64,000 bases of DNA from Escherichia phage UP19, in sequence record OX638288; one strand, 5' to 3'. The first letter of the stretch is position 1. Each line of letters opens with the position of its first letter. The translations under genes were made by a program, and so were the position numbers. Shown here one piece after another: positions 5,699-63,410 of this stretch. The notes below the pieces were generated by a model. The model was not told the DNA's origin. It did not search any database and saw only the letters and a program-made list of their open reading frames with translations.

Positions 5699-5741
5699 TG
5701 TTTACAAGGTCTATAGACATGATACTATAGGCCTATCAAAA
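5699..5741 (+). promoter_or_regulatory. early promoter / stem-loop cassette (PeSL-like)
   Basis: GTTTACA, 16-17 nt spacer, TACTAT, then conserved core tataggcctatcaaaac; member of a repeat family. Confidence 0.6.
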
Positions 5742-5765
5742 CAAACCAACCACATGGAAATCAAA

Positions 5766-5990
5766 ATGAAAACTTATCAAGAATTTATTACAGAAGCTAA
5801 AAAACACGAAGACCAACTGCCGGTTGTTACAAAAACCTTTGACGGTACATTGGCCGATTTTAAAAAAGTCCCTAGTGATAAGCTCGCTAAATTGGCCGGG
5901 AGTATCGGTGAAAAAGATGGCAAGGTCACGTTTTCTGCTCAAGGTACAGCCAATCTTAAAAAACTTTTGAAAGCCGCTGGCGCAGAATAA
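5766..5990 (+). CDS. internal-protein-like protein (CTS MKTYQEFITE)
   Basis: ATG 5766 after SD ggaaa; N-terminus MKTYQEFITEA; position equals T4 ipI locus. Confidence 0.65.
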   Translation: MKTYQEFITEAKKHEDQLPVVTKTFDGTLADFKKVPSDKLAKLAGSIGEKDGKVTFSAQGTANLKKLLKAAGAE

Positions 5991-5991
5991 A

Positions 5992-6264
5992 ATGAAAACT
6001 TATCAAGAATTTATCGCTGAATCTATTCTTAATGAGGAAGTAAAAATTAACAAATCTGTTAAGACTATGATTGATAATATAAATCATCTCTATAACATCG
6101 ATTTGACTAATCATGTAACTTTAGGCAATAAGCTAAACTTTTTTGTATTCGATACTTCAGAACTCGACCAAAATCAAATCAATAATATTGAACGCTTTGC
6201 TAATGACAAAGGGCTTCGTCACGAAACAGCTGGCTATAAAAAATATGCAATTTATCTAAAATAA
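5992..6264 (+). CDS. internal-protein-like protein (CTS MKTYQEFIAE)
   Basis: 90 aa; N-terminus MKTYQEFIAES identical to the T4 IPIII-type CTS. Confidence 0.65.
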   Translation: MKTYQEFIAESILNEEVKINKSVKTMIDNINHLYNIDLTNHVTLGNKLNFFVFDTSELDQNQINNIERFANDKGLRHETAGYKKYAIYLK

Positions 6265-6267
6265 ATT

Positions 6268-6309
6268 GTTTACAACGGGCTTTAGTGATGATACTATAGC
6301 CCTATCAAA
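6268..6309 (+). promoter_or_regulatory. early promoter / stem-loop cassette (PeSL-like)
   Basis: gtttacaacgggctttagtgatgatactatagccctatcaaaa; same family. Confidence 0.6.
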
Positions 6310-6333
6310 ACAAATGAGTGATTGGAGAATAAA

Positions 6334-6519
6334 ATGAAACGTTGTGAATTAATTAGAAATGTTACTGCACTGGCCGCCGTTACTGCTTTTGGCTTTAGTA
6401 TGTTTGCAGGATTCATGTTGGATTTGCTTACAACTTCCGAGAATACAATCTCTTTAGTAGTGGCATTCTTAATTGGTTCAATCTCTTTCGTTATGGATAA
6501 AATCTCTAAAGGTGAATAA
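6334..6519 (+). CDS. small membrane protein
   Basis: ATG 6334 with SD ggaga; 61 aa, two hydrophobic helices. Confidence 0.55.
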   Translation: MKRCELIRNVTALAAVTAFGFSMFAGFMLDLLTTSENTISLVVAFLIGSISFVMDKISKGE

Positions 6520-6920
6520 TGAACGTTGAATATTATGTATATGCGGATTACGAAAATAATCCGTCTAAAGATGAAGATAACCGTTTAGGTGTAGATGCTT
6601 TTGAATCCCCTGCAGCGGCATGGCAATGGGTTGAAAGAACCGATATTCCTTACCGTTATATTGAAGTGGTCGACCACGCAGGAAACAAGTATCCTAAGGA
6701 AGCATATGTTCCTTCCGGAAAGGTAAATTTCCTTTTGTTTGCGGGTGATAATTATTATCCACGTGGCGGGTATACCGATTTAATCGCTAAGGCATTTTCT
6801 GAAGACGAACTACGTAATATCGTTAAAGATAATGAGAATAAGCCTCGTTACGGTTCTAATCGTTTTGACTGGTGGCAGATTGTTAATGCTAATACCCACA
6901 CTATTGTAGACGAGGGTTAA
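6519..6920 (+). CDS. hypothetical protein
   Basis: 133 aa ORF; ATGA overlap with upstream stop. Confidence 0.5.
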   Translation: MNVEYYVYADYENNPSKDEDNRLGVDAFESPAAAWQWVERTDIPYRYIEVVDHAGNKYPKEAYVPSGKVNFLLFAGDNYYPRGGYTDLIAKAFSEDELRNIVKDNENKPRYGSNRFDWWQIVNANTHTIVDEG

Positions 6921-7211
6921 ATGTTATACGTTAAGGTTACTAATCCAGGGAATGGCTATAAATCCGATCAGGTTGCAGCCGAGTTGTTGATTCGAAATTA
7001 CGGCAAAGATGCTGTGCTTGATGTTCAACAGGTTAATATTGGCCGTAGTTCAAGCGATGTTAAACTCAAAGTTAACAGCCAACGCTATAATTCTGTTAAC
7101 TTTACTTTTTATACGGCAAATGAAAATGGGTTGGTCGAATATGACATCTTTAAAAATCCTTTGAAAATTGCTTCTATTAAACTTGATTATATTAATATGT
7201 GGCCACAATGA
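6921..7211 (+). CDS. hypothetical protein
   Basis: 96 aa ORF tiling the + strand. Confidence 0.5.
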   Translation: MLYVKVTNPGNGYKSDQVAAELLIRNYGKDAVLDVQQVNIGRSSSDVKLKVNSQRYNSVNFTFYTANENGLVEYDIFKNPLKIASIKLDYINMWPQ

Positions 7212-7684
7212 ATATTAAATTCGGACAAATTATCCCTAAAGGTTATGCAATTGAAATTGAAACCTGGGAAAATGATGGCGATAACTATAAAACCCAGACT
7301 GTATTTGGCGTAGAAGAACATGAAATCCAACAGTACAAATATATCCTAGAACTTTTCCATGGTTCTCATTGCAACAACCCGGATAAATGTGGTAATTCGG
7401 AATGGGACGTAGTTAAGCATCTGGTTATTGCCCACATTGAATCGGGTGTAAAATCAGGCCAGTTGACCCCTGAATTTTTAGATAAGGCCCTCGGTATCCA
7501 AGACTTAGAAGCCTTGCTGAATGACGACGAGGAAGAATACTACTTGAATGAAGCCCTTACTGAGCTCCTTGGTATGGCTTGTGAATATGATGGTGATTTC
7601 ATCCGTGTAATTTCTTACGTTAAGCTGTATATTATTGAAGAAGAAATTAAAATCCCTGATGTGAAAGCACTTGATATGCTTTAA
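7208..7684 (+). CDS. hypothetical acidic protein
   Basis: ATG 7208 overlapping upstream stop (ATGA); 158 aa. Confidence 0.5.
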   Translation: MNIKFGQIIPKGYAIEIETWENDGDNYKTQTVFGVEEHEIQQYKYILELFHGSHCNNPDKCGNSEWDVVKHLVIAHIESGVKSGQLTPEFLDKALGIQDLEALLNDDEEEYYLNEALTELLGMACEYDGDFIRVISYVKLYIIEEEIKIPDVKALDML

Positions 7685-7813
7685 GAATTATGTGATATTA
7701 TTACTCTATCATTAATACCCTCTATTACCAAAGGTTCTTCCCTCAAAGAGCCTTTCATAATAGACAAGGTCTATTAATCAAACTTACTTTACTTAATTTT
7801 ATTTGAGGTGTTT

Positions 7814-8085: not shown

Positions 8086-8159
8086 GGCCCTGTAGCTGGA
8101 CGGTCAAGCGAGCGACTCATAATCGCTGGATGGTGGTTCGATTCCACCCAGGGCCACCA
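8086..8159 (+). tRNA. tRNA, anticodon CAU (Met or lysidine-Ile)
   Basis: Perfect 7-bp acceptor stem ggccctg/cagggcc; anticodon arm agcga-ctCATaa-tcgct; T-arm ggtgg-ttcgatt-ccacc; encoded CCA. Confidence 0.75.
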
Positions 8160-8163
8160 ATTT

Positions 8164-8238
8164 GGATGTGTAGCTCAGCGGTAGAGCAGTTGACTGTTAA
8201 TCAATTGGTCCATGGTTCGAATCCATGCATGTCCGCCA
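8164..8238 (+). tRNA. tRNA-Asn (GUU)
   Basis: D-arm gctc-agcggta-gagc; anticodon loop ctGTTaa; T-arm catgg-ttcgaat-ccatg; encoded CCA. Confidence 0.8.
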
Positions 8239-8242
8239 AATA

Positions 8243-8318
8243 CGAGGCATAGCTCAGAAGGAAGAGCAACGGTCTTCTAAACCGTAGGTCGTAGGTTCGA
8301 TCCCTACTGTCTCGACCA
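8243..8318 (+). tRNA. tRNA-Arg (UCU)
   Basis: Anticodon arm acggt-ctTCTaa-accgt; T-arm gtagg-ttcgatc-cctac; encoded CCA; T4 also carries tRNA-Arg(UCU). Confidence 0.8.
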
Positions 8319-9854: not shown

Positions 9855-9895
9855 GTTTACACCTCCTTTAAACGTGATACTATAGACCTATCAAA
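9855..9895 (+). promoter_or_regulatory. early promoter / stem-loop cassette (PeSL-like)
   Basis: gtttacacctcctttaaacgtgatactatagacctatcaa; upstream cctcctt complementary to downstream SD aaggagag. Confidence 0.6.
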
Positions 9896-9918
9896 ACAAC
9901 AGAGTGAAGGAGAGTAAA

Positions 9919-10182
9919 ATGGATAATTATGGTGAATTGTTTAATTTCTTTATGAAATGCGTTCCTGAAGAATTTGGTGCTACAGTAAACGATATTAAAG
10001 TTATAGGTGATGACCATCCTATATTTGAAACTTACGCAGTAATGGGTAATGACGATGGGCAGTGGTATACCGTAAAGGTTGTGGTTAATATGTTTGCTGC
10101 TGAAGGGTACGTTAAATTGTCGACCAAAGTTTATCACGATAATGATTTTGATGCGGAAGATTATTTCAATAATATGAAATAA
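9919..10182 (+). CDS. hypothetical protein
   Basis: ATG 9919 after SD aggaga; 87 aa. Confidence 0.55.
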   Translation: MDNYGELFNFFMKCVPEEFGATVNDIKVIGDDHPIFETYAVMGNDDGQWYTVKVVVNMFAAEGYVKLSTKVYHDNDFDAEDYFNNMK

Positions 10183-10184: not shown

Positions 10185-10221
10185 GTTTACAACCCTCAGA
10201 GGACAGGGTATAATGTCCTCA
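10185..10221 (+). promoter_or_regulatory. sigma70-type early promoter with -10 inside inverted repeat
   Basis: GTTTACA-17 nt-TATAAT; gaggacag/tgtcctc inverted repeat flanks the -10. Confidence 0.6.
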
Positions 10222-10257
10222 TGGATTACAAAATACCAACCAACTGAAGGAAATACT

Positions 10258-10851
10258 ATGAATACTTTAAAGAAAATTGTTGAGTTCATCCGTTCTAAAC
10301 TGGGTACCGCAATGACTCAGAACCTGTCAATTGAAGACCAGTATACTAAAGCTGCTTCTACCCTGATTGATAAAATTACCGAACTTCAGACTGCTCATGT
10401 TAAGTCGGTGAATGAAGAAAAACGCATTCGTGCATTGGCAAATGAAAAAGACCAGCTCGCTGCTTCTAAAGAACGTGAAATTCGTAAACTGATTAAAGAA
10501 GGCGCCGATGTTCAGGTGCATGCTAAACTAGGCCTCCTTTATCGTCGTACCGCTAATCAACTTCGTAAGAAAGCAGACGATTATATCGAAATGCGTAATG
10601 AAATTAAACTGAAGGTCAAGGAACTTGATGACTCTCGTCAAGAACTGGCTGTTAAGCTCGAGTACATCCGTGAAACTCGTAATATGGCTGCCCTTGGTAT
10701 TGCTACTGCCGATGATGTGGTTGAAATCGCTGCACTGACTAAGATTGATATTGAAGATACCCTGCTGCGTGTAGAAACGTTTAAAGGCCCACAAGTTGGA
10801 ATGGATACGACTTCAGCTGATATCGAAGACTACATTAATTCACTTAAGTAA
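10258..10851 (+). CDS. coiled-coil protein, PspA/IM30-like (tentative)
   Basis: 197 aa predicted all-helical; heptad-rich; layout and N-terminal amphipathic segment resemble PspA-family proteins. Confidence 0.5.
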
Positions 10852-14880: not shown

Positions 14881-14920
14881 GTATACAAGGTCTATAGGTG
14901 TGATACTATAGACCTATCAA
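14881..14920 (+). promoter_or_regulatory. early promoter / stem-loop cassette (PeSL-like)
   Basis: gtatacaaggtctataggtgtgatactatagacctatcaa; ggtctatag/ctatagacc inverted repeat. Confidence 0.55.
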
Positions 14921-14946
14921 AACAACAGAGTGAAATGGAGAATAAA

Positions 14947-15159
14947 ATGAAACTTTCTAACCAAGCAATCAACATGTTAAACGAAGTTCGTGCAGCTGGT
15001 GCTAAATGTCTGATGGTTAACACTCGTGACGGTGACCTTCGTCAAGCATTTGGTGAATTGAAATCTGCTGACCTGGTTAAATGTTCAGTTGGTATCGGTA
15101 ACGCACTTCGTGTATCCTTATCCCCTAAAGGTAAAATGTACTTTTTCAACAAAAAGTAA
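14947..15159 (+). CDS. hypothetical small protein
   Basis: ATG 14947 after SD ggaga; 70 aa. Confidence 0.55.
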   Translation: MKLSNQAINMLNEVRAAGAKCLMVNTRDGDLRQAFGELKSADLVKCSVGIGNALRVSLSPKGKMYFFNKK

Positions 15160-16680: not shown

Positions 16681-17122
16681 GAAAGTTAAAGAACTATCAG
16701 CCGGTATTTTGTTCATGACTGTCGATAAAGAATTGGTTATGGGTCGTGTAACAGGTTCTCGTAATCCAGAGAATATGCGTCATAAATGGGACATTCCTAA
16801 AGGCCATGTCGAACCAGGTGAAGAGCCTATTCAAGCTGCTATGCGTGAAACCGAAGAAGAGATTGGATTCACTGCATATGACCCTGCGTTCCTGAAAGAC
16901 CTAGGTGAGTTCAAATATTCTAGCAATAAGAATCTACATCTGTTCTTATATACTGTGCCTGTCGAACACGAGCAGTTCAAGGATTGCAAATGTACCGCTT
17001 ATCATACGTTCCCTGACGGCCGTACGATTCCTGAATTCGATGCCTTTGCCTTGATTAAACGTCCGCAATGGGAATATGTCATGGGCCCGTCGATGTTTAA
17101 GGTTTTAGATTCGCTCTTTTGA
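16667..17122 (+). CDS. nudE: Nudix hydrolase (NudE-like, T4 e.1)
   Basis: Nudix box GHVEPGEEPIQAAMRETEEEIGF; immediately upstream of lysozyme as in T4. Confidence 0.85.
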   Translation: MMMSKKVKELSAGILFMTVDKELVMGRVTGSRNPENMRHKWDIPKGHVEPGEEPIQAAMRETEEEIGFTAYDPAFLKDLGEFKYSSNKNLHLFLYTVPVEHEQFKDCKCTAYHTFPDGRTIPEFDAFALIKRPQWEYVMGPSMFKVLDSLF

Positions 17123-17130
17123 TATAAATA
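17123..17130 (+). promoter_or_regulatory. late promoter TATAAATA for lysozyme, with SD-sequestering hairpin downstream
   Basis: TATAAATA followed by cctcct-ataatc-aggagg; 3' arm is the SD of gene e. Confidence 0.65.
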
Positions 17131-17152
17131 CCTCCTATAATCAGGAGGTATT

Positions 17153-17647
17153 ATGGATATTTTTGATATGTTACGTCAAGACGAAGGTCTTGATTTAAAT
17201 CTTTATAAAGACACTGAAGGTTATTGGACTATTGGTATTGGCCAGTTAGTTACCAAGAACCCATCTAAAGATGTTGCTCGTGCCGAACTTGACAAACTTA
17301 TGGGTCGGGTTTGCAATGGACGTATTACTATGGCTGAAGCTGAACAACTCTTTAACCGTTCAGTGGAAAATGCTCGTAGAGCTATAATGCGTAATCCTAA
17401 ATTGAAACCGGTTTATGATGTGCTGGACGAAGTTCGTCGTTGCGCGCTGATTAATATGGTCTTTCAAATGGGTGAAGCTGGTGTCGCTGGATTTACCAAC
17501 TCTCTGCGTATGCTCCAGCAGAAACGTTGGGATGATGCCGCAGTTAACCTGGTGCAGTCCCGTTGGTATAAGCAGACTCCGAATCGCGCTAAGCGAGTTA
17601 TCTCTACATTTAAAACAGGAACTTGGAAAGCATATGAAAACCTATAA
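17153..17647 (+). CDS. e: endolysin, T4 lysozyme family
   Basis: 164 aa [13 protein letters not shown]...[13 protein letters not shown]...; Glu11/Asp20 context conserved; clear T4 lysozyme homolog. Confidence 0.95.
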
Positions 17648-17903
17648 AGAATTTTTGGCCGAATCTCAACTGAACGAAAACACTGACCTAGACCGTATGA
17701 CATTCCTGGCTAAGAAAGGCGGCTTCGAATTTAAAGCCATTAAGAAAGTAAATGGGTATTCTTTTGAAGTCGGTGAATATACCTTTGGTAACAAGGGTGA
17801 TGGCCAGTGGCAAATTGTTAAAAACGGCAAAGAAGTAGACTACCTTTTCGGTAAGAAACTTAGTGACATTGCTAAAATAATGGGCGAATATTCTAAAAAA
17901 TAG
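17634..17903 (+). CDS. internal-protein-like protein ([13 protein letters not shown])
   Basis: ATG 17634 overlapping end of e; N-terminus [12 protein letters not shown]; position like T4 ipIII/ipII. Confidence 0.65.
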
Positions 17904-17943
17904 TTTACATCTCCTGTATGCATGATATTATAGACCTATCAAT
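17903..17943 (+). promoter_or_regulatory. early promoter / stem-loop cassette (PeSL-like)
   Basis: gtttacatctcctgtatgcatgatattatagacctatcaattacaggaga; arms tctcctgta / tacaggaga. Confidence 0.65.
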
Positions 17944-17959
17944 TACAGGAGATTACAAA

Positions 17960-18376
17960 ATGACTCGTATCAACCTTACCTTAGTATCTGAATTGGCTGA
18001 CCAACACTTAATGGCTGAATACCGTGAATTACCACGTGTTTTCGGTGCAGTTCGTAAGCATGTTGCTAACGGTAAACGTGTTCGTGATTTTAAAATCAGC
18101 CCTACTTTTATCCTTGGTACAGGCCATGTTACATTCTTTTATGATAAGCTTGAATTTTTACGTAAGCGACAAATTGAGCTTATAGCCGAATGTTTAAAAC
18201 GTGGATTCAATATCAAGGATACTACTGTCCAAGACATTTCCGATATTCCACAGGAATTCCGTGGTGATTATATTCCTCACGAAGCTTCTATCGCTATTTC
18301 ACAAGCCCGTTTGGATGAAAAAATTGCACAGCGTCCTACCTGGTACAAATATTATGGTAAGGCTATTTACGCTTAA
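17960..18376 (+). CDS. denV: endonuclease V, pyrimidine dimer glycosylase/AP lyase
   Basis: 138 aa [34 protein letters not shown]...; essentially identical to remembered T4 endonuclease V. Confidence 0.95.
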
Positions 18377-20190: not shown

Positions 20191-20240
20191 GTTTACATCT
20201 CCTGTAGACGTGGTACTATAGACCTATCAACTACAGGAGA
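20191..20240 (+). promoter_or_regulatory. early promoter / stem-loop cassette (PeSL-like)
   Basis: gtttacatctcctgtagacgtggtactatagacctatcaactacaggaga; perfect 10-bp arms tctcctgtag / ctacaggaga. Confidence 0.65.
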
Positions 20241-20247
20241 TTACAAA

Positions 20248-20706
20248 ATGTCAGAAATTAATTCAGAAGTATTCATCCGCCGCAACAAATTACGTCGACA
20301 GTTCGAAACCGAATTTCGTGAACTTAACGCGTCCATCAAAAAAGCCGCCATTAAGAGTGGTGTCCCAGCTTTCTTTATTAAGTACTCTAATCACTTGTTG
20401 GACCGTGCTATCCAACGTGAAATTGACGAAAAATATGTTTTCTCTTTGTTCAAGAAGCTCCACAATCATGTTAAAGAAATCCATGAATTTTTAATCCAGG
20501 AGCCTCTTCCTGACGTAGAATCTGAAATTGTCCCGGGTAAAGTGTATCGACCACTGCGTCTCGAGATTACCGATAAAACCTTATGGTTAGGTATGACCGT
20601 AGATCGTAAACATCCTGATAAAGGATATTCATTAAAATGCCGTATGGCATTTGTTAACTCTAAACGTTTAGAAGGTAAAACCAGCACTAAAGTAATCTAT
20701 CTTTAA
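20248..20706 (+). CDS. regB: RegB site-specific endoribonuclease
   Basis: 152 aa MSEINSEVFIRRNKLRRQFETEFR...HLLDRAIQREIDE...; like T4 RegB. Confidence 0.9.
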   Translation: MSEINSEVFIRRNKLRRQFETEFRELNASIKKAAIKSGVPAFFIKYSNHLLDRAIQREIDEKYVFSLFKKLHNHVKEIHEFLIQEPLPDVESEIVPGKVYRPLRLEITDKTLWLGMTVDRKHPDKGYSLKCRMAFVNSKRLEGKTSTKVIYL

Positions 20707-24313: not shown

Positions 24314-24353
24314 GTTTACTTCCTCTAGGAACGTGATACTATAGACCTATCAA
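24314..24353 (+). promoter_or_regulatory. early promoter / stem-loop cassette (PeSL-like)
   Basis: gtttacttcctctaggaacgtgatactatagacctatcaa; cctc / gagg arms around SD. Confidence 0.6.
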
Positions 24354-24370
24354 CTAATGAGGAGAACAGT

Positions 24371-24607
24371 ATGAAACTTACAAGTACTACGGTTTCATTG
24401 GAATATGAAATCAATAACCGCCTCCTTGAGATTAAGATATTCGACGACCGAAGTATCTTTGCTGACTACCGAGGGTACAGAATTCGCCTAGAAAAGGACG
24501 AGCTCAAGGAACCACGGCTCCTTAAAGACACATTAAAGGGATGTGGGTGTAAGCTGAAGACCACTCAAGCCCAAGAATTAATTTCTACTATCAACAAATA
24601 CTGGTGA
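24371..24607 (+). CDS. hypothetical protein
   Basis: 78 aa; SD gaggag upstream. Confidence 0.5.
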   Translation: MKLTSTTVSLEYEINNRLLEIKIFDDRSIFADYRGYRIRLEKDELKEPRLLKDTLKGCGCKLKTTQAQELISTINKYW

Positions 24608-27423: not shown

Positions 27424-27465
27424 AGTGTACATCTGCTTTAAACATGTTATTATAGACCTATCAGC
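27424..27465 (+). promoter_or_regulatory. early promoter cassette variant
   Basis: gtgtacatctgctttaaacatgttattatagacctatcag; also contains TGCTTTA. Confidence 0.5.
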
Positions 27466-27503
27466 TAAAGAGCTGAAAACTTAAACCAAACGGAGATATA
27501 AAA

Positions 27504-27734
27504 ATGTACGCTATCAAAAATTACAAATACGGTTCTTACACTACTAACTTGATCGCTCTGGAAGATACCTTTAAAGCTGATCGTGCTGAAGAATATGAAA
27601 TTATTGAAGCTGTAACTAAAAACAAAGGTAAACAAGTTGTTATGCCTAATGGCCGTAAAGCTGCTCTTTATACAGTAAATGGTGAAACATGGGCCCGCTA
27701 TAAAGATGGCTTCTGTGAAATTATTGCAAAATAA
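27504..27734 (+). CDS. hypothetical small protein
   Basis: 76 aa; SD ggaga upstream. Confidence 0.5.
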   Translation: MYAIKNYKYGSYTTNLIALEDTFKADRAEEYEIIEAVTKNKGKQVVMPNGRKAALYTVNGETWARYKDGFCEIIAK

Positions 27735-27735: not shown

Positions 27736-27777
27736 TGTGTACATCCATTTCAAACATGTTATTATAGACCTATCAAA
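27736..27777 (+). promoter_or_regulatory. early promoter cassette variant
   Basis: gtgtgtacatccatttcaaacatgttattatagacctatcaa. Confidence 0.5.
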
Positions 27778-27800
27778 TCTACTGAGTGAAGGAGAATAAA

Positions 27801-28781
27801 ATGTTAACTATCAAAATCAACAAAGGTATCTATCGCGGTAATGAAATCTCTGGTACGTTCATGAGTTCAGGTAAAACCTGGTTCCCAAATAAAATTCATG
27901 AATCTGAAGCTCACCTCGGTGATGGCAAGGTATTCGTGCAGATTGATGGTGTTGAACGTGGTGTATGGGTGTTCAAATGTGACGTTGAAATGGAAGGCGC
28001 TGAAGCTCCTGCAATGGTTACTGAATCCGCTGAAGAAATGAAACATCGTATCAACAAACGTTTTAAAGTAATGAACATGATGACTAACGGAATCATCGAT
28101 GGTAAAATTCGTTCCCTTATCATCTCTGGTGCCGCAGGTATTGGTAAAACTTATTCTTTGGATAAAGCATTACAGAATGCCCACGAAAATGAAACTATCG
28201 AATATAAATCAATCAACGGAAAGATTAGTGGAATCGGTCTTTACGAGCAGCTTTGGAATAACCGCGGCCCTAATAGTGTTCTTCTTATTGATGATGTTGA
28301 TGTATTCTCTGACATGGATATTCTGAACCTTCTGAAAGCCGCATTGGATACCGGTGAGAAACGTAAGGTGTGCTGGAGCACTTCAAGTTCTTATCTCGAT
28401 GATAAAAATATCGATAAAGAATTCGAATACGAAGGCACCATCGTGTTCATCACCAACGTTGATATTGACCGTGAATTAGAGCGTGGAACTAAACTTGCTC
28501 CGCACCTCCAGGCTTTAGTATCTCGTTCAGTTTACTTAGACCTCGGAGTTCACTCTAACGAAGAGATTATGGTTCGTGTTGAAGACGTTATCCTGTCCAC
28601 TGATATGATGCAAAATCGAGGTCTGACCGATGCTGAGACTTATCAAGCACTGGCATGGATGAAGGCTAATGTATCTCGTCTTCGTAACGTATCATTACGT
28701 ACAGCTCTTTATCTGGCGGACTTCATTGCCACCGATAAAAATGACTGGAGCGAAATCGCTGAAGTTACACTTCTGAAATAA
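27801..28781 (+). CDS. AAA-type P-loop ATPase
   Basis: ATG 27801; Walker A ISGAAGIGKTYS; Walker B VLLIDDVD. Confidence 0.65.
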   Translation: MLTIKINKGIYRGNEISGTFMSSGKTWFPNKIHESEAHLGDGKVFVQIDGVERGVWVFKCDVEMEGAEAPAMVTESAEEMKHRINKRFKVMNMMTNGIIDGKIRSLIISGAAGIGKTYSLDKALQNAHENETIEYKSINGKISGIGLYEQLWNNRGPNSVLLIDDVDVFSDMDILNLLKAALDTGEKRKVCWSTSSSYLDDKNIDKEFEYEGTIVFITNVDIDRELERGTKLAPHLQALVSRSVYLDLGVHSNEEIMVRVEDVILSTDMMQNRGLTDAETYQALAWMKANVSRLRNVSLRTALYLADFIATDKNDWSEIAEVTLLK

Positions 28782-29135: not shown

Positions 29136-29180
29136 GTTTACATCTCCAGTAGAAATGATACTATAGACCTATCAACTACT
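29136..29180 (+). promoter_or_regulatory. early promoter / stem-loop cassette (PeSL-like)
   Basis: gtttacatctccagtagaaatgatactatagacctatcaactactggagg; arms ctccagtag / ctactggag. Confidence 0.65.
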
Positions 29181-29190
29181 GGAGGTTATC

Positions 29191-29715
29191 ATGAACGCTA
29201 AAGATATTTTTTCACTGATTAATTTTAACAATGGTAATTTCAAATCTGAAAAACAAAGCAAGTTCTTTAACGACGTTGCTTGTGGTAATGAGATTACCGT
29301 ATCTGGAGGAGAGATTTACAAAAGCCGTTGGAACTGGATTGCTGTCATTGATTCAGTTGGTATTGTAGAGCTCTATAAAAACACTAACAAAAAACGTACT
29401 CTTCACTGGAGTCGTGAAACCAATCAAGCTTATCAAGCTGAACGTAACAAACGTTTAATGCCTACTGAATCTGACCTGGCAAACGTTAAATCAGATATCG
29501 CTTATTTTGATAACTTGATTGCTGAACAACAAGCGGTTATTGATAAGTTTGATGAAATCAAAGCTTGTAAAGAGATTCCTGAATTCATGCGGGAATCAGT
29601 AAACGAACAATACGCCCTCACTTCAGGTCGTATCGAACAGTACAAATCGCAACGAGCTGAACGCCAAGCTCTGCTTCAGAAATTTGAAGAGCGTTTAAAG
29701 ACGGTTCTCGCATAA
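29191..29715 (+). CDS. hypothetical protein with C-terminal coiled coil
   Basis: 174 aa ORF. Confidence 0.5.
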   Translation: MNAKDIFSLINFNNGNFKSEKQSKFFNDVACGNEITVSGGEIYKSRWNWIAVIDSVGIVELYKNTNKKRTLHWSRETNQAYQAERNKRLMPTESDLANVKSDIAYFDNLIAEQQAVIDKFDEIKACKEIPEFMRESVNEQYALTSGRIEQYKSQRAERQALLQKFEERLKTVLA

Positions 29716-31807: not shown

Positions 31808-31850
31808 TGTTTACATCCAAGGACGGATGGAGTATAATCCTTTTATCAAC
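31808..31850 (+). promoter_or_regulatory. early promoter / stem-loop cassette (variant with TATAAT)
   Basis: gtttacatccaaggacggatggagtataatccttttatcaa. Confidence 0.55.
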
Positions 31851-31866
31851 TACTGAGGAGAATATC

Positions 31867-32877
31867 ATGACCCGTACTGAATACATCAATGCCTTTACTA
31901 AGTATATCACTGACAATACCCCTCCATTAACACCGTATGAGGTGATAGTTTCTAATATCAATAAATGGGTAGACCAAATTGATAAAGCATTATCCAATTG
32001 TTTCAAAGATGAAATCGAAAAGATTGCAGGCCGTTTGTTTATTTCTGATATCGTAGATACATTTAAAGGTTCTCGACTGCTTTCACGGTTGGTCAATAAG
32101 GATATCCTTTCAGAGTTTGGCAAAGAGAAACACCCAGGTTCCAGCCACGTTGTTAGCTACCAATGGTTTGGTGATGTTTTAAAAAGCTATATCAAAATGA
32201 AAGGTACCGACCCTAAGGGCTTATTTCCTTTACGTTGGGCCGGTGAATTTAAGGCTAACTCCGCATTAATTCTAAAAGCAGCAACCAAAACCTTTGTAAA
32301 GGGTGATTGTCGTACTATCCACCCTATGGCTGATGGCATGATTAAAACAAACAACTATAAAGGGAAGGTGCTTATTTCTATTATTTGGTCGCCTAGTTGG
32401 AAACCTAAAGAAGTTGAAGTTTCGAAATACCAAGATATTTCCTACAATACCCTGAATATTGTAGAACAAGCTTTAGCTTTGATGGATACAGTAGAGAAAT
32501 ATGAGATTCAAGAAATCAACCACCACTTAGGCTGGAAAGGATATGAAGTTTTAGTAACAGTTCGCGAAATCAAATGCCCTGTTCCAAAAACCGACGCTGA
32601 AATTTACCAAGAAAAATGTGAGGAAATTGTGAACACTGATAAAGAGCCTGCAACCTTAGAAGACTTGATTGATGAGCTGAATGGCCCAAGGCTACTGGCC
32701 TGTGCACCAATTACTAAATCCAAGCCGCCAGAAGTAGTTGTTCTGGAAAAAGCATATAAAGATGCCCTTGCTATCAACAAAAAACTGACCGGACAATATA
32801 CTGCTGCCAAGAAACTTTGGGAAGAGTCTACCAATCGTCTGGATAAACTGGAACAAGCCCTGGAGCTGTTGAAATGA
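31867..32877 (+). CDS. hypothetical protein
   Basis: ATG 31867 after SD gaggag; 336 aa. Confidence 0.55.
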   Translation: MTRTEYINAFTKYITDNTPPLTPYEVIVSNINKWVDQIDKALSNCFKDEIEKIAGRLFISDIVDTFKGSRLLSRLVNKDILSEFGKEKHPGSSHVVSYQWFGDVLKSYIKMKGTDPKGLFPLRWAGEFKANSALILKAATKTFVKGDCRTIHPMADGMIKTNNYKGKVLISIIWSPSWKPKEVEVSKYQDISYNTLNIVEQALALMDTVEKYEIQEINHHLGWKGYEVLVTVREIKCPVPKTDAEIYQEKCEEIVNTDKEPATLEDLIDELNGPRLLACAPITKSKPPEVVVLEKAYKDALAINKKLTGQYTAAKKLWEESTNRLDKLEQALELLK

Positions 32878-36406: not shown

Positions 36407-36462
36407 TATTTACTTCCTCTCCTCACGTGTTATAGTCTATCCTATCAACACATGAGGAGAAC
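36407..36462 (+). promoter_or_regulatory. early promoter / stem-loop cassette (variant)
   Basis: tatttacttcctctcctcacgtgttatagtctatcctatcaacacatgaggagaa; arms cctcacgtgtt / aacacatgagg include SD. Confidence 0.55.
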
Positions 36463-36465
36463 ATT

Positions 36466-36642
36466 ATGACTATCCAAGATAAAGAAATTAAAGTCAACCA
36501 GTATTATTCAATCAACGGCAAAGCTGTTCTAGTAACTGAAATATCTAGCCTAGACGTGTGGTATACCATAATTGACCTTAATATTAAAACGATTTGTGAC
36601 CGTGGTGTATTTTGTTCGATAGCTAAGGAAATTAAATTATGA
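36466..36642 (+). CDS. hypothetical small protein (58 aa)
   Basis: SD gaggag 7 nt before ATG. Confidence 0.45.
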   Translation: MTIQDKEIKVNQYYSINGKAVLVTEISSLDVWYTIIDLNIKTICDRGVFCSIAKEIKL

Positions 36643-37328: not shown

Positions 37329-37529
37329 ATGAATCCTGAATCTAAATTATCACAACGAATTGCTGAAGCCCGTCGTCAGTTCTTTGAAAATATGATAGCT
37401 CAAGGTATTGATGACGAAGTTTTTCTAAACTGGTTTTGGAATAACAAATATTCAAAATGCGCAGGAGCAATATTAATATCAGCCGCAATGATGTATGAAG
37501 GTTGGAAAGGTGCATTAGCACAAAAATAG
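37329..37529 (+). CDS. hypothetical protein
   Basis: 66 aa ORF. Confidence 0.45.
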   Translation: MNPESKLSQRIAEARRQFFENMIAQGIDDEVFLNWFWNNKYSKCAGAILISAAMMYEGWKGALAQK

Positions 37530-37565
37530 TTTACAAACTCTTGGGACCAGAGTATAATGGTCCTA
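37529..37565 (+). promoter_or_regulatory. sigma70-type early promoter with -10 in inverted repeat
   Basis: GTTTACA-17-TATAAT; ggacc / ggtcc arms flank the -10. Confidence 0.6.
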
Positions 37566-37598
37566 CGGATTATAAATTTTTAAACTGAGGAAATTATT

Positions 37599-37928
37599 AT
37601 GTCACAAGCTATTAAAAACGTACTGAACTCTTTCGCTTTCGATAAAGTTAATGAACTGATGAAAACTGGCTTTGTAACTCCTCAGGTTCTTGACCAATGG
37701 GTTGCTGAACTGTTACCAATCATGCACTCTAAAGACCAAAAAATTGGTAAGAACGGTATTCGTGAAATCCTGGTTCAATATATTCTCGACGAGTTTGATG
37801 TGGCCGCCTTTGGTGTCGAATCTAAAGCTTGGCAGCCAGGTGAAATCACAGACAAAACCATCCGTCGTATGAAGAATCAACGTAAGAAAAAATTCGTTGA
37901 CCTGAAAATTGTTAAGGCAGCTAAATGA
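37599..37928 (+). CDS. hypothetical protein
   Basis: 109 aa; SD gaggaaattatt. Confidence 0.5.
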   Translation: MSQAIKNVLNSFAFDKVNELMKTGFVTPQVLDQWVAELLPIMHSKDQKIGKNGIREILVQYILDEFDVAAFGVESKAWQPGEITDKTIRRMKNQRKKKFVDLKIVKAAK

Positions 37929-38692: not shown

Positions 38693-38745
38693 TGCTTTAA
38701 ACGGGTCTCCAAATACTATGATATAATAGACCTATGATTTGAGTT
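38692..38745 (+). promoter_or_regulatory. promoter upstream of gene 55 (TGCTTTA box plus TACTAT/TATAAT; middle/early type)
   Basis: tgctttaaacgggtctccaaatactatgatataatagacctatga. Confidence 0.45.
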
Positions 38746-38758
38746 ATCTGAGGTAACA

Positions 38759-39840: not shown

Positions 39841-40277
39841 ACCCTTTAAACGGCTTCTTATTGGAGCCGCCTTCAGACTTCGCTCATACGGTAATATTTG
39901 TATTAAGCAGACTGAAACCGAATATAAAATGATTGGGCAGTATTCCGATGAAATTTTTCGGATTGAGCCTGTAGCCAAGGTTTGGGTGGATTCACATCAA
40001 CTTAAGAAGTGGTGGCAACGATGATAACATGGACAGGTGGCTAATGAAAGACGAACATCCGGATTTTTAAGCTATGAATGACGAATACGAAAAAGTTTAA
40101 GAGGTTTTATGAATGACGAATTCGATGGATTTTGATAAGATTAAATCTGACAAAAATGAGATGATACTTAAATTTGAAGCTGCTCGTATTAAAGCGGAAA
40201 ATGAAGGTACTATTACCTATAAGCCTATCAAGTTCAGGTCTTCTCATGAACCTCTGTATGGCGTATTAATTGGTAAA

Positions 40278-43432: not shown

Positions 43433-44115
43433 TGAGACATCTTGTTTACAAAATAATAAATTTAGTTAATAATAAGTACTATGTAGGGATACATAGTACT
43501 GAAAATATTAAAGATTCGTATATGGGCTCTGGTTTATATATTAAAGCTTCTATTAAAAAATATGGTTTGGAAAATCATAGAAAGGAAATACTTTATAATT
43601 TTGATACCAGAGAAGAGGCTATCCAAATGGAAAGAATTATAGTCAATGAGGAATTTATAAAGAACCCTCTTACATATAATATTTCTTTAGGAGGTAATGC
43701 CGCACCTTTTATAAAAGAGGAAACCAGACTTAAACAGAGTATAGCTGCTAAAAATAGACCGTATTCATTTTATGAAAACCTTTTTAAAACTAGAAAGAAA
43801 TCTAAATGCCTAGAGCTAAGAAATAAATCTAAAGAACATATAGAAAAAATTCGTCAGAGTAATATAAGAAATGGTACATATTTGCCTGAGAACAACCCTA
43901 TGTTCGGAAAAACTCATAGCCAAGAAACAAGGGATAAAATTTCTATAGCCCTTAATTCTAGGTCTGACGAAGCAAAACAGGCTATGAAAAGCAAACAATC
44001 TGCAAAAGCTAAAAGCAGACCAACTGTAAAGTGCCCATATTGTGATAAAATTGGCTCTAACAACATTATGAAACGATGGCACTTTGATAATTGTAAATTA
44101 AAGGATGCTTCATAA
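43432..44115 (+). mobile_element. GIY-YIG homing endonuclease gene (Seg-like) inserted between 46 and rpbA
   Basis: 227 aa; GIY-YIG motifs KYYVGIH...YMGSG; C-terminal repeated K/R-rich NUMOD-like DNA-binding modules; atypical codon/AT content. Confidence 0.75.
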
Positions 44116-44306
44116 TGAGTGATTTTATAACAGGCCAGCATTTGTTGGCCGTTCCAGAAATAAAGAGATATGTTTTAGTTAACAACTTCTCTGGAGACGA
44201 ACATCTTGTTACTGAAGATTATCTCCAAAATGCTTTTAAGTCAGAATATGTTACAATCATGTCAAATAGAAATCCAGCATGGTTTGTCTATGAGTACTTT
44301 GATTAA
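44115..44306 (+). CDS. hypothetical small protein
   Basis: 63 aa; ATGA-coupled to endonuclease gene. Confidence 0.45.
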   Translation: MSDFITGQHLLAVPEIKRYVLVNNFSGDEHLVTEDYLQNAFKSEYVTIMSNRNPAWFVYEYFD

Positions 44307-44308
44307 AT

Positions 44309-44334
44309 TGCTTTAAAATATTGATTTATAATAC
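44309..44334 (+). promoter_or_regulatory. candidate MotA-type middle promoter for rpbA/45
   Basis: TGCTTTA, 12 nt, TATAAT; textbook T4 middle-promoter spacing. Confidence 0.5.
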
Positions 44335-44362
44335 ATTTACCAACTAAATGAGAGAAAATATT

Positions 44363-50472: not shown

Positions 50473-50515
50473 GTTTACATACCACATGGAACGTGGTAGT
50501 ATCCTTCCTATCAAC
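50473..50515 (+). promoter_or_regulatory. early promoter / stem-loop cassette (variant core)
   Basis: gtttacataccacatggaacgtggtagtatccttcctatcaactacatgagg. Confidence 0.55.
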
Positions 50516-50532
50516 TACATGAGGAAATTATA

Positions 50533-50769
50533 ATGGAAGCTTTAATCGTTAGTGCTGGTGTTTTAGGATTCGGTTCTCTGGTTATTATGTTCATTGGTTA
50601 CTTTTTACCATGGATTCTGGCCCTTCTGCGAGGCACTCGTAGCAATGTTGGAATCTTCTTCCTTAATCTCCTGTTAGGGTGGACGATGATTGGTTGGGTA
50701 GTGGCTTTAATCTGGGCTATCGTCGCTGAACGTAAATCAAACGCACAAATCATTATCGTTAAACAATGA
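50533..50769 (+). CDS. imm: superinfection immunity protein Imm-like
   Basis: 78 aa, two TM helices, FFLNLLLGWTMIGWVVALIWAIV motif; after gene 43 as in T4. Confidence 0.7.
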   Translation: MEALIVSAGVLGFGSLVIMFIGYFLPWILALLRGTRSNVGIFFLNLLLGWTMIGWVVALIWAIVAERKSNAQIIIVKQ

Positions 50770-58796: not shown

Positions 58797-58838
58797 GTTT
58801 ACATCTCCTATAGGCATGATACTATAGACCTATCAACT
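58797..58838 (+). promoter_or_regulatory. early promoter / stem-loop cassette (PeSL-like)
   Basis: gtttacatctcctataggcatgatactatagacctatcaa. Confidence 0.6.
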
Positions 58839-58849
58839 TGGAGAACAAA

Positions 58850-59167
58850 ATGAAAACCATCGACTGTAAAGCAGAATATAAAGTGTATTATCACGGAAGT
58901 TGTAGTGTTGCTAATATTGGTAATATGCTTTGTCCTCCTGAGGAAACAGGAGTTCTGTCTGAAACTGGTCGTAAGAAAAACCTAAATCGTGTGTTCTTTA
59001 CTGAAGATATCGGTTTGGCTAAGATTTATGCTGGACGAGCTGCTCGTTCAGTGGGAGGAGAACCTCGTCTTTATCGTGTAATTGCTCCGGTAGATGTGGT
59101 TTGTTTAAATGATACTAAAGGCGCCACGGTTTATCATGCTGAATGGGCCTTCTGTGAGGAAATCTAA
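58850..59167 (+). CDS. hypothetical protein
   Basis: ATG 58850 after SD ggaga; 105 aa. Confidence 0.5.
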   Translation: MKTIDCKAEYKVYYHGSCSVANIGNMLCPPEETGVLSETGRKKNLNRVFFTEDIGLAKIYAGRAARSVGGEPRLYRVIAPVDVVCLNDTKGATVYHAEWAFCEEI

Positions 59168-59805: not shown

Positions 59806-59848
59806 TAAAATAAGTGTTTACAACGGTCTATGGTAATGATACTATGGA
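59806..59848 (+). promoter_or_regulatory. early promoter / stem-loop cassette (PeSL-like)
   Basis: gtttacaacggtctatggtaatgatactatggacctatcaa. Confidence 0.6.
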
Positions 59849-59873
59849 CCTATCAACTAACTAGGAGTTAAAA

Positions 59874-60167
59874 ATGAAAAAGTTATTAATCGCAGCAATC
59901 CTTACAGTAGCATCATGTGGCACGGCTCCGGTAACGGCCGGTTATGACGCAGACCTTTGTGAGTGGTCTATGACTGCCGATCAAGAAGCAGTTGAGCATC
60001 AGATTTATGCCGATATCATGAACATCACTAAACGTGACCGTCCTGATATGGTTAAAGAAGTATCTGACCAATTGGCTTCTAGCGGTGTTATGCAGTATAA
60101 CTATGTTCTGTACTGTGATGCTAATTTCGATAACAAAAATATCGTTAAAGAGGTGACAGGTGAATAA
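59874..60167 (+). CDS. sp: periplasmic lipoprotein, spackle-like by size and position
   Basis: 97 aa; signal peptide with lipobox ASCG; about 1 kb upstream of gene 61, where T4 sp (61.3, 97 aa) lies. Confidence 0.45.
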   Translation: MKKLLIAAILTVASCGTAPVTAGYDADLCEWSMTADQEAVEHQIYADIMNITKRDRPDMVKEVSDQLASSGVMQYNYVLYCDANFDNKNIVKEVTGE

Positions 60168-60600: not shown

Positions 60601-60601
60601 T

Positions 60602-61188: not shown

Positions 61189-61204
61189 AGCCCAAGGAAA
61201 AATA

Positions 61205-62233: not shown

Positions 62234-62430
62234 ACAGGAACTCCGCTAAAGAATCCAATTATGCTTAATACGTGTTCCATTGTAACCGCTGGTAAAATTA
62301 CCCCTTGGCTAGCGGCTACAGGAACTACTAAAAGATTCCAAAGGAATACGTCTAGCGCAAGAAAACCTAACATCATTTTCTTGTCTTTCTTTTCAGCCAA
62401 TTTCCAGATTTGGTAAAAAATACTACCCAT
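62230..62430 (-). CDS. small membrane protein on the opposite strand
   Basis: 66 aa; strong SD aggagg 6 nt upstream of minus-strand ATG; convergent with gene 61. Confidence 0.5.
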   Translation of the reverse strand: MGSIFYQIWKLAEKKDKKMMLGFLALDVFLWNLLVVPVAASQGVILPAVTMEHVLSIIGFFSGVPV

Positions 62431-62524
62431 GTTATCCTCCTGTTAAATTAATATTTATTCGCTTTAATCTAGCAGTTTATAATTATCTAACTTACTAACA
62501 AATGAATTGATAAGGAAAAATATA

Positions 62525-63046
62525 ATGGCTCATTTTAATGAATGTTCTCAACTTATTGCCGGTGCCGATAAAGCTGAAGAAGCTTATTTTAATGCTCTGA
62601 TTCACGAAGATAAAGACCCTCTACAGGTTATGCTTGATATGCAGAAATCTTTGCAGGTTCGTTTAGCTAAAGATAAGCCTGAATATAATCGTCATCCTGA
62701 TGATTTGGCCACTGCGGGTGAAGTTGTCGATTGGCTTCGCAACCAGAAAGATTATATTGATGACGAATTCCGTGAACTTCTGACTTCTCTTGGTGGTATG
62801 AGCAATGGTGAAAAAGATGCATCTGCAGTATGGAAGCCTTGGAAAGCTCAACATGCTGAACGTCGTGAAACCCTGATTAACGATTTGTCTCCTGAAGACC
62901 AGCTCGAAATTAAATTCGAAATGATTGATATTCTGCACTTTGTTCTGAATATGTTCCAGGGTCTTGGACTGACCGCTGAAGAAATCTTTAAACTGTATTA
63001 CCTGAAAAATGCCGAGAACTTTGCTCGTCAAGACCGAGGTTATTAA
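62525..63046 (+). CDS. 56: dCTPase/dUTPase gp56 (MazG-like NTP pyrophosphatase)
   Basis: ATG 62525; MAHFNECSQLIAG...DPLQVMLDMQKSLQVRLA...EIFKLYYLKNAENFARQDRGY; like T4 gp56. Confidence 0.95.
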   Translation: MAHFNECSQLIAGADKAEEAYFNALIHEDKDPLQVMLDMQKSLQVRLAKDKPEYNRHPDDLATAGEVVDWLRNQKDYIDDEFRELLTSLGGMSNGEKDASAVWKPWKAQHAERRETLINDLSPEDQLEIKFEMIDILHFVLNMFQGLGLTAEEIFKLYYLKNAENFARQDRGY

Positions 63047-63048
63047 GT

Positions 63049-63056
63049 TATAAATA
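63049..63056 (+). promoter_or_regulatory. late promoter TATAAATA for soc
   Basis: Exact TATAAATA about 32 nt before soc ATG. Confidence 0.6.
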
Positions 63057-63087
63057 CACCTGTAATTAAACAACAAAGGAGTTAATT

Positions 63088-63321
63088 ATGGGTGGTTTCG
63101 TTAATATCAAAACCTTTACGCATCCAGCTGGTGAAGGTAAAGAAGTTAAAGGTACTGAGGTTTCAGTTCCGTTTGAAATCTATTCAAATGAGCATCGTAT
63201 TGCCAATGCTCATTATCAGACTTTCCCTTCGGCCGTTGCAGCCTATACTACTGTAGTGACTGATGCAGCCGATTGGCGAACTAAGAACGCGGCGATGTTT
63301 ACGCCAACTGATATTGTTTAA
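63088..63321 (+). CDS. soc: small outer capsid protein Soc
   Basis: 77 aa ...FVNIKTF...EVSVPFEIYSNEHRIANAHYQTFPS... like T4 Soc; late promoter upstream. Confidence 0.85.
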   Translation: MGGFVNIKTFTHPAGEGKEVKGTEVSVPFEIYSNEHRIANAHYQTFPSAVAAYTTVVTDAADWRTKNAAMFTPTDIV

Positions 63322-63327
63322 TTATAA

Positions 63328-63348
63328 GGAACCTTCGGGTTCCTTTTT
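63328..63348 (+). terminator. rho-independent terminator (UUCG tetraloop)
   Basis: ggaacc-ttcg-ggttcc followed by T5. Confidence 0.7.
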
Positions 63349-63358
63349 CGTTTTAAGG

Positions 63359-63410
63359 GTTTACTTTATAGGAGGGTTATGATAAGATGGTCTTATCTTA
63401 TAGAGGAGAA
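63359..63410 (+). promoter_or_regulatory. early promoter with palindromic -10 region
   Basis: gtttactttataggagggttatgataagatggtcttatcttatagaggag; gataaga / tcttatc palindrome. Confidence 0.5.

Follow-up and report, generated by a model that had tools for sequence, protein, structure and literature searches.

Repeated early-promoter cassettes of Escherichia phage UP19 and predicted pairing between the promoter spacer and the ribosome-binding site

Organization of the window

We analysed a stretch of 64,000 nucleotides (nt) from Escherichia phage UP19 (sequence record OX638288; this whole stretch is called the window), in which a cassette composed of an early promoter, a potential stem-loop and a ribosome-binding site is repeated in front of many genes. 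Over a stretch of 13 kb, the window gave matches of 97% to Escherichia phage JS10 and of 91-97% to many further T4-like phages of the Dhakavirus (JS98) type. Judging from these sequences, the window comes from a JS98/JS10-type (Dhakavirus) T4-like coliphage. Nearly all genes of the window are encoded on the + strand. By synteny with JS10, the gene order is baseplate genes 5/53, transfer RNA (tRNA) genes, e, denV, regB, tk, nrdC, 49 and 55; the 47/46 and 45/44/62 regions and then 43, imm and beyond follow in the later part. When Rfam covariance models were compared with the whole window, only three tRNAs were found and the cassettes matched no curated family.

The repeated early-promoter cassette

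The sequence GTTTACA-N15-19-TAYTAT has eight exact matches in the window (0.04 expected), and the core TATAGACCTATCAA at up to two mismatches has 13 (0.77 expected); all of these are on the + strand. The repeat of GTTTACA, TAYTAT and the core, which an earlier reading of the sequence only had proposed, is therefore real and far above expectation. For the tally of cassettes, a looser scan was combined with inspection, and an intergenic promoter followed by a Shine-Dalgarno sequence (SD) and a start codon was required. The tally came to 18 intergenic early-promoter cassettes, each of them on the + strand; the earlier figure of about 19 copies was a fair one. The genes named there as lying downstream, denV (17960), regB (20248) and imm (50533), were also correct. 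Twelve cassettes contain the core, and the six at 10185, 31809, 36407, 37529, 50473 and 63359 have diverged from it.

The cassettes are intergenic and 60-80 nt long. Each is composed of an AT-rich upstream region, the -35 sequence GTTTACA, an extended -10 (TGn-TAYTAT) and a conserved discriminator/start site (AGACCT-ATCAA), and ends at its 3' side with the SD and ATG. The arrangement GTTTACA-16/17-TAYTAT/TATAAT with TGn corresponds to the strong early sigma70-type promoter of the promoter-early stem-loop (PeSL) cassettes. The core consists of the final three -10 bases together with the discriminator and the start site. Start regions of a similar form, (C)TATCAAC, are found again in T4 and in distant phages of the T4 type; the core is therefore part of the extended early-promoter consensus of this phage and not the separate conserved element that it had been taken for.

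An orphan copy of the core, TATAAGCCTATCAA, is found at 40218-40231 (+), just before a terminator. It was ruled out as a cassette, because it is located within a coding region and has no -35; it may be a degraded cassette remnant or a chance match.

Local hairpins, terminators and pairing of the SD

Two RNAs were folded for each cassette. The read-through RNA began 25 nt upstream of the -35 and ended at ATG+18, and the promoter-initiated RNA began at the 7th nt after the -10. This start site was assumed from the usual 7-nt spacing after the -10.

The folding distinguished two classes of hairpin. In five of the 18 cassettes, those of e.8, denV, regB, nrdC.8 and 55.6 (class B), the predicted probability that the SD is unpaired was 0.00-0.01 in the read-through RNA and 0.38-0.92 in the promoter-initiated RNA. 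In six others (5700, 6268, 10185, 14881, 37529 and 59816; class A), the spacer forms a strong local hairpin with the -10/+1 region (free energy, dG, of -12 or lower) and the SD remains open. The class-A hairpin is centred on the palindrome CTATAG (GGTCTATAG...CTATAGACC), and the core also supplies its 3' arm. These six local hairpins across the -10 and five spacer-SD helices correspond to the stem-loop of the PeSL cassettes. The hairpin is weak or absent in the remaining seven cassettes, four of which lie behind a terminator. In total, five cassettes are placed directly behind an intrinsic terminator with a GC-rich hairpin and a T-run. The idea that such shielded cassettes lack SD pairing holds for four of these five, which have neither hairpin; the exception is the e.8 cassette at 9855. 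The three configurations (local hairpin, SD helix and upstream terminator) are nearly exclusive.

No U-run was found after the cassette hairpins of either class, and their 3' arms are followed by ATTACAAAATG or TATCAAAAC. Because no U-run follows, the sequences indicate that the cassette hairpins are not intrinsic terminators. Furthermore, the class-B loops are 25-30 nt long, unlike those of intrinsic terminators. The genuine terminators are the separate elements upstream of the -35 at the five cassettes mentioned above.

The class-B helix uses the part of the promoter spacer that directly follows the -35 as its 5' arm; the GGAG of the SD with 4-7 flanking nt serves as its 3' arm. The helix has 10-11 bp, and the predicted start site is located about 24-25 nt downstream of the 5' arm. 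The duplex dG ranges from -11.9 to -18.2, which is beyond the values of spacer shuffles. The mean energy of the cognate spacer-SD duplexes was -8.77 kcal/mol, in contrast to -4.96±0.45 for composition-preserving shuffles of the spacers (0/1000 reached the observed value) and -6.58±0.49 for spacers paired with the leaders of other cassettes (0/5000). Four copies were at or below -12 kcal/mol (0.13 expected), and the copy at 9855 fell just short at -11.9. In the remaining 13 cassettes, the duplex energies were indistinguishable from those with shuffled spacers. Thus, the claim that many copies carry an exact complement of the SD in the spacer is true for the five that had been cited (9855, 17903, 20191, 29136 and 36407) and was overstated for the others.

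Complementarity above chance depends on how it is counted. By duplex stability it is clear. By a lax count, in which at least three SD bases pair with the promoter segment in the minimum free energy structure, 6/18 cassettes were positive against 4.5±1.4 in shuffles, which is no excess. This is because pyrimidine-rich spacers pair weakly with purine-rich SDs by default, and only extended helices count as a signal of spacer-SD pairing. A statement that a third of T4 early promoters pair the SD (6/18 in the window and 10/26 in T4 by minimum free energy) was withdrawn, since spacer shuffles give 4.5 and 8.4.

Conservation of the helix in other T4-type phages

A scan of IMG/VR with the 14-nt core gave mostly chance matches in unrelated contigs. 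Therefore, orthologous leaders were retrieved via their downstream proteins. For denV, 36 distinct upstream sequences of diverged T4-type phages were obtained, and almost all of them have an early promoter. The SD was sequestered (unpaired probability of 0.02 or less) in 29 of these 36 leaders, in contrast to 16 of 93 genes of the window. Two geometries were observed. Sixteen sequences, among them those of the JS98 group and T4, have geometry 1, with a 5' arm that begins 1-2 nt beyond the -35 and a helix that continues upstream from GGAG. The other 13 have geometry 2, in which the 5' arm coincides in part with the -10 to +1 region and the helix runs from GGAG to ATG. The partner of the SD is at or upstream of the predicted start in both geometries (24-25 nt upstream in geometry 1 and at the start in geometry 2).

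In a GGAG-anchored alignment, three Watson-Crick pair types were found at each of five flanking positions, and T-G (G.U) pairs were present on the sense strand. A formal covariation count was made with 27 distinct geometry-1 cassettes (denV, regB, nrdC.8, 55.6 and e.8), which had been pre-selected for the fold. Among these, 90.6% of the cells were paired, compared with 72.1% in shuffles (0/500) and 40-50% when the partner was slid. Seven of 11 pairs changed on both sides, and the covariation score was 0.459, as against 0.15 for shuffled and at most 0.107 for slid partners. On these sequence comparisons, the spacer-SD helix is supported by evolution, and compensatory changes maintain it in diverged phages. 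Two other readings, a site bound by protein and a cruciform in the DNA, were considered and rejected, because the arms vary freely with compensation and the G.U pairs are on the sense strand.

Not all lineages keep the same arms. Some regB leaders have unrelated arms (for example, the 15-bp TTTCTCCTCTTTATG/CATAAAGAGGAGAAA) or a local hairpin nested inside a TCTCC/GGAGA outer stem.

These comparisons bear on the possibility that all cassette hairpins act mainly on transcription or RNA stability, as attenuators, terminators or 3'-end protectors of upstream messages, and that the role of the SD is incidental to C/T-rich spacers. This is the original PeSL view. According to Arbiol et al. 2010 (PMC2839356), an RB49 PeSL stem-loop cut expression of downstream lacZ as much as rrnB T1. 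The flips between local and SD-pairing hairpins at orthologous positions and the lax count given above point in the same direction. However, neither class has a U-run, the class-B loops are 25-30 nt long, and true terminators exist as separate elements upstream of the -35. Moreover, the helices reach 4-7 bp beyond GGAG and covary, and denV keeps its SD in a helix via two unrelated geometries. We regard a role mainly in transcription or stability as unlikely.

The same design in T4

The T4 denV leader has the form GTTTACA-TCTCCTGTAGGTATGA-TACTAT-AGACCTATCAACTACAGGAGAA. This is the same cassette including the core, and the unpaired probability of its SD is 0.00. Strong helices occur in T4 at denV, regB, nrdC.8 and motB.2, with spacer-SD duplexes of -17.8, -21.6, -20.0 and -15.9 kcal/mol, respectively (the last three at positions 62740, 53885 and 8161 of NC_000866). 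Three of these four genes are common to the window, and their arm sequences are different. Across the 76-kb early region of T4, cognate spacer-SD duplexes were stronger than shuffled (0/1000) and non-cognate (26/5000) ones. The available parts of the T4 reviews contain no mention that we could find of the duplexes at regB, nrdC.8 and motB.2.

The T4 ipII cassette is of the local-hairpin type. Valerie et al. reportedly noted stem-loops before ipIII, ipII and denV in 1986, and Repoila et al. reportedly found an early promoter with an overlapping inverted repeat at the internal-protein loci of T-even phages in 1994.

Comparison with known systems

The cassettes of the window are early-promoter/stem-loop units of the PeSL type, as the sequence-only reading had proposed. 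PeSL cassettes of T4-type phages were described by Arbiol et al. 2010 (PMC2839356) and Comeau et al. 2014 (PMC4122927); these papers give a T4/PST promoter consensus of TTTACW-N17-TAYWAT and mention JS98-type phages in passing. Like PeSLs, the cassettes of the window are intergenic, about 70 nt long, and composed of an AT-rich region, a strong early promoter, a stem-loop and a 3' SD with ATG. They too are present in many copies on one strand in hyperplastic regions, ahead of small ORFs (open reading frames) of unknown function and a few accessory genes, and some indels (insertions or deletions) are bounded by two copies. In the published cassettes, the stem-loop is placed upstream of the -35, over the -35, between the boxes, over the -10 or just before the start, and is read as a terminator or attenuator; pairing of the stem with the SD and gating of translation are absent from the two papers as far as they were read, and the word "translation" never occurs in the 2010 text (PMC2839356). 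In the window, the association with breakpoints is not significant against a gene-junction null.

The class-B design resembles a known translational switch. In T4 e, soc, 49 and I-TevI, the promoter is placed in the 5' strand of a helix that sequesters the SD/AUG, and the transcripts from this promoter are the sole translatable ones (PMC3014915). Two features are shared by prediction. Upstream-initiated RNA folds the SD into a helix (unpaired probability of 0.00-0.01 in five copies), and the promoter is placed so that its own transcripts, with a start predicted 7 nt after the -10, lack the 5' strand. In contrast, the promoter of the T4 genes is late (TATAAATA) or middle, and their expression is delayed, silent early and on late. 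Class B does not share this. Its embedded promoter has an early sigma70-type -35/-10, and the predicted polarity is reversed: on at once and silent after early shut-off. No early-promoter case of such an SD-gating switch is given in the available text of the review (PMC3014915) or was found in the literature examined. By analogy, the class-B mechanism may be regarded as the early-promoter counterpart of the e/soc/49/I-TevI switch.

The window also contains the late version of SD gating, at e and gene 4 only. Gene e (17122-17155, +) has the late-promoter arrangement TATAAATA-CCTCC...GGAGG-ATG and served as an internal positive control. Upstream of gene 4, at 2078, there is also a TATAAATA at -34; the SD of gene 4 is fully paired, and this gene may be a further member of the late-gene switch.

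Gibb and Edgell reportedly described, in 2009, a hairpin that masks mobE's ribosome-binding site in phage Aeh1. As in class B, an RNA hairpin there is said to occlude the ribosome-binding site of a gene embedded in a T4-type early region. Unlike class B, mobE is a single gene linked to a homing endonuclease, with no repeated promoter cassette.

A possible restriction of translation to transcripts from the early promoter

The use of the ribosome-binding site as the 3' arm is a real feature, specific to certain genes (5/18) and conserved down to T4, and is best read as an early-promoter variant of the known translational switch. It is a modest extension of known T4 biology. We propose the following model, which builds on the observed sequences, predicted structures, geometry, covariation and conservation down to T4. 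The genes are arranged head-to-tail on one strand, and each cassette would also be transcribed by read-through from upstream. Each would carry one of three devices that act on the read-through RNA. These are an intrinsic terminator just upstream of the cassette, the classic PeSL stem-loop, in which the spacer pairs locally with the -10/+1 region, and, in the gene-specific subset e.8, denV, regB, nrdC.8 and 55.6, the long-range spacer-SD helix. In read-through RNA of this subset, the SD would be locked in a 10-11-bp helix and translationally silent. RNA begun at the cassette's own promoter would be translatable, because the start site is about 24 nt downstream of the 5' arm and this arm is absent. 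In class B, probably only transcripts begun at the own promoter are translated. Synthesis of the class-B proteins would then be tied to the first 2-3 min of infection, before the early promoters are shut off, and these genes would be insulated from upstream transcription.

For regB, the helix would be a third layer on its known tight control. RegB is made from an early promoter that is shut off at 2-3 min, and tight control is needed (PMC3014915); therefore, the predicted early-only translation fits regB.

With moderate confidence, we consider the cassettes to be early promoters of PeSL architecture in which the class-B helix restricts translation to own-promoter transcripts. The exact start site, the translational effect and the physiological purpose of the helix are inferred. 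Several points weigh against this interpretation. The helix is present in only 5/18 cassettes. The sequence-only reading had presented the hiding of the SD in read-through RNA and its exposure in own-promoter RNA as the cassette design; folding supports this in the five copies, and these form a minority class and not the general design. The lax count of SD pairing is not above shuffles, and the 27 sequences of the covariation count were pre-selected. Some orthologues of regB, nrdC.8 and 55.6 have a local hairpin only and a free SD; therefore, sequestration is not indispensable at those genes. The cassette at 9855 combines an upstream terminator with an SD helix, which would be redundant if the helix served purely as insulation from read-through. 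The identical arms of denV and regB in the window may reflect gene conversion and not independent selection. Finally, the 5' ends and translation in this phage are predictions, with an assumed start site.

Another function has been considered for the class-B helix. Every class-B SD is GGAG, the target of the RegB endoribonuclease, and the helix might shield it in polycistronic read-through RNA, preserving long transcripts for downstream genes instead of regulating how the gene next to it is translated. RegB is inhibited by secondary structure, the GGAG of T4 denV is RegB-resistant in vivo, and 16 T4 RNAs with GGAG in stable structures are resistant (PMC1702504). However, the denV resistance was ascribed to the 3' sequence (C at position 9), and changing only this made denV cleavable (PMC1702504). 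The SD of regB itself is cut efficiently by RegB in vivo; therefore, at least the bulk of regB transcripts expose the SD (PMC3014915). Moreover, a paired SD blocks ribosomes regardless of RegB. Protection from RegB may be a rival or an additional role of the class-B helix, and as the explanation of the helix we think it very improbable.

A wider form of the translational restriction can be put forward only tentatively, at a little less than even chances. In this form, a translation switch that responds to own-promoter transcripts only would define a T4-type immediate-early subset, namely denV, regB and nrdC.8 together with the lineage-specific 55.6, e.8 and motB.2. The promoter spacer would double as an anti-SD, so that synthesis is confined to 2-3 min and these genes give no protein from read-through, delayed-early and middle transcripts, which are abundant. 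The switch would remain functional despite swaps of the cassette interior between genera (as in the T4 denV mosaic described below), would be the mirror image of the e/soc/49 switch, and has apparently gone unnoticed in T4.

Should the gating prove real, the temporal control of T4 would have a further layer that is simple and encoded in the sequence. Strictly immediate-early expression would then be possible even for a gene in the middle of a long early/middle transcription unit. The gating would also help to explain the brief production of the potentially harmful RegB nuclease and why the promoter spacers of these phages cannot vary freely. The idea is directly testable in T4, where denV, regB and nrdC.8 share the design and genetics and transcript maps exist. 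The PeSL concept is refined as well: the term "stem-loop" covers at least two devices, the local hairpin and the helix that pairs with the SD, and true terminators exist beside them.

Gene shuffling and exchange of cassettes

The sequence-only reading regarded the cassettes as mobile units that mediate gene shuffling. We surveyed breakpoints by comparing 1-47 kb of the window with six Dhakavirus relatives and counting indel/replacement events of at least 60 nt. Among the 57 distinct events, 12 have an edge inside a cassette and 45 do not. Event edges were in cassettes in 9/75 cases against 2.2 expected under a uniform null, four times more often (p=3e-4). When gene junctions were used as the null, an edge was found at 9/14 cassette junctions and 45/90 others, which is not a significant excess (Fisher p=0.24); for junctions with spacers of at least 40 nt, the numbers were 9/14 and 13/24 (p=0.40). 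The breakpoint enrichment, significant against the uniform null, thus vanished against the gene-junction null. With other gene boundaries as the control, the case for PeSLs as preferred sites of recombination is weaker than one would expect from the anecdotes.

Individual exchanges within cassettes were nevertheless observed, and this part of the shuffling claim stands. At the place of the single cassette 10185 of the window, five relatives have two cassettes with about 25 nt in common and, between them, an additional gene of 399 nt. Relatives either lack the ORFs between the cassette pairs 5700/6268 (ORF 5766-6264) and 27425/27737 (ORF 27504-27734) or have a replacement for them. In T4, the denV leader is a mosaic: the 47 nt of its interior are identical to those of the Dhakavirus cassette, the sequences on either side are identical to the T-even/IME341 type, and the switch points are at the -35 and the SD. 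The SD is sequestered with either of the alternative interiors. Mobility is plausible in individual cases and statistically indistinguishable from ordinary plasticity at gene boundaries.

These exchanges, together with the published PeSL mini-circles, would also fit a view in which the inverted repeats serve primarily as substrates for recombination of the DNA, either as homology patches or as cruciforms of mobile PeSL units that shuffle genes, and RNA structure is a by-product. However, cassette junctions are not richer in breakpoints than others, and most events (45/57) have no cassette edge. The arms vary freely yet stay paired, with G.U on the sense strand only, which fits RNA and not a protein site or a DNA cruciform. 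A role in recombination is compatible with an RNA function and does not replace it; as the primary role of the repeats, it seems to us improbable.

Individual cassettes

All cassettes described here are on the + strand. Class A begins with 5700..5768, which precedes an internal-virion-protein gene; its local hairpin AGGTCTATAG/CTATAGGCCT across the -10 has a local dG of -13.4, and the SD is open. The hairpin of 6268..6336, GGGCT.TAG/CTA.AGCCC, is compensatory with respect to the copy at 5700 (local dG -12.8) and precedes a trna.4-like membrane ORF. The cassette 10185..10260, with a TATAAT -10 and GAGGAC/GTCCTC across it, precedes e.6; it is the site of the indel between two cassettes, at which five relatives have the 399-nt gene. 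The remaining class-A copies are 14881..14949 (AGGTCTATAG/CTATAGACCT, local dG -15.4), 37529..37601 (TATAAT, GGGACC/GGTCC across the -10, local dG -12.4, preceding 55.2) and 59816..59876 (GGTCTATGG/CTATGGACC, local dG -14.8, preceding the spackle gene sp).

For class B, SD unpaired probabilities are given as read-through versus initiated. In 9855..9921, which precedes e.8 (87 aa), the spacer CCTCCTT pairs with an AAGGAGG-like SD (0.01 versus 0.92; duplex -11.9, p=0.03), and the terminator is about 45 nt upstream. The denV cassette 17903..17962 has the arms ATCTCCTGTA / TACAGGAGAT (0.00 versus 0.38; duplex -15.3) and forms the right boundary of a variable internal-protein slot. The regB cassette 20191..20250 has ATCTCCTGTAG / CTACAGGAGAT (0.00 versus 0.66; duplex -18.2). 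In 29136..29193, which precedes nrdC.8, the arms ATCTCCAGTAG / CTACTGGAGGT (0.00 versus 0.47; duplex -17.8) differ from the denV and regB copies by the compensatory changes T>A / A>T. The diverged cassette 36407..36468 (TATTTAC...TATAGT), which precedes 55.6, pairs TCTCCTCA-cg-TGT with ACA-TGAGGAGA (0.00 versus 0.66; duplex -16.8).

The other seven cassettes have weaker structures or none. An intrinsic terminator is directly upstream of 24314..24373 and 27425..27506, both without a strong hairpin, of 58797..58852, which has only a 5-bp TCTCC/GGAGA potential, and of the diverged 63359..63417 (GTTTACT...TAAGAT). The cassette 27737..27803, which precedes nrdC.10, has no significant hairpin; it is the right flank of the dispensable ORF 27504-27734, and 27425..27506 is the left flank. 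The hairpin is weak or mixed in 31809..31869 (TATAAT; SD unpaired 0.20 versus 0.65; preceding nrdC.4) and weak in 50473..50535 (TAGTAT; preceding imm).

The denV and regB cassettes (17903-17962 and 20191-20250), which are 2.3 kb apart, have identical arms and an identical SD-to-ATG stretch, GGAGATTACAAAATG. The denV copy of other JS98-type phages has GGAGATTAAAA(A)ATG. Because the two copies are identical here and the denV copies of other JS98-type phages differ, the sequences suggest that the two cassettes of the window are related by gene conversion.

Other features of the window

An unlisted 89-codon ORF (17634-17903, +) begins with the conserved internal-protein leader that is also present in ORF 5766 (MKTYQEFITEA; PHROG "internal virion protein"). 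There is a 14-nt overlap between this ORF and the stop of gene e, and the TAG stop of the ORF itself overlaps the -35 of the denV cassette. This ORF occupies a hypervariable slot, in which relatives have ipII, ipIII, another ip gene or nothing.

Sites resembling middle promoters with a MotA box (TGCTTTA, then TATAAT) are located at 38693-38760 and 44305-44350 (+), upstream of gene 55 and rpbA. The site at 38693-38760 has AGACCTAT after its -10, as in the early cassettes, and a GGTCT/AGACC inverted repeat.

The three tRNA genes are consecutive at 8086-8315 (+; RF00005, 62-71 bits). This region differs strongly among relatives, which have two or three tRNAs with variable flanks. Between genes 46 and 45.2, an ORF of 227 aa with a NUMOD3 motif (43432-44115, +) is probably a homing endonuclease gene. 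It is absent from five of six relatives compared, and KIT01 has a different mob-like endonuclease at the same place on the opposite strand.

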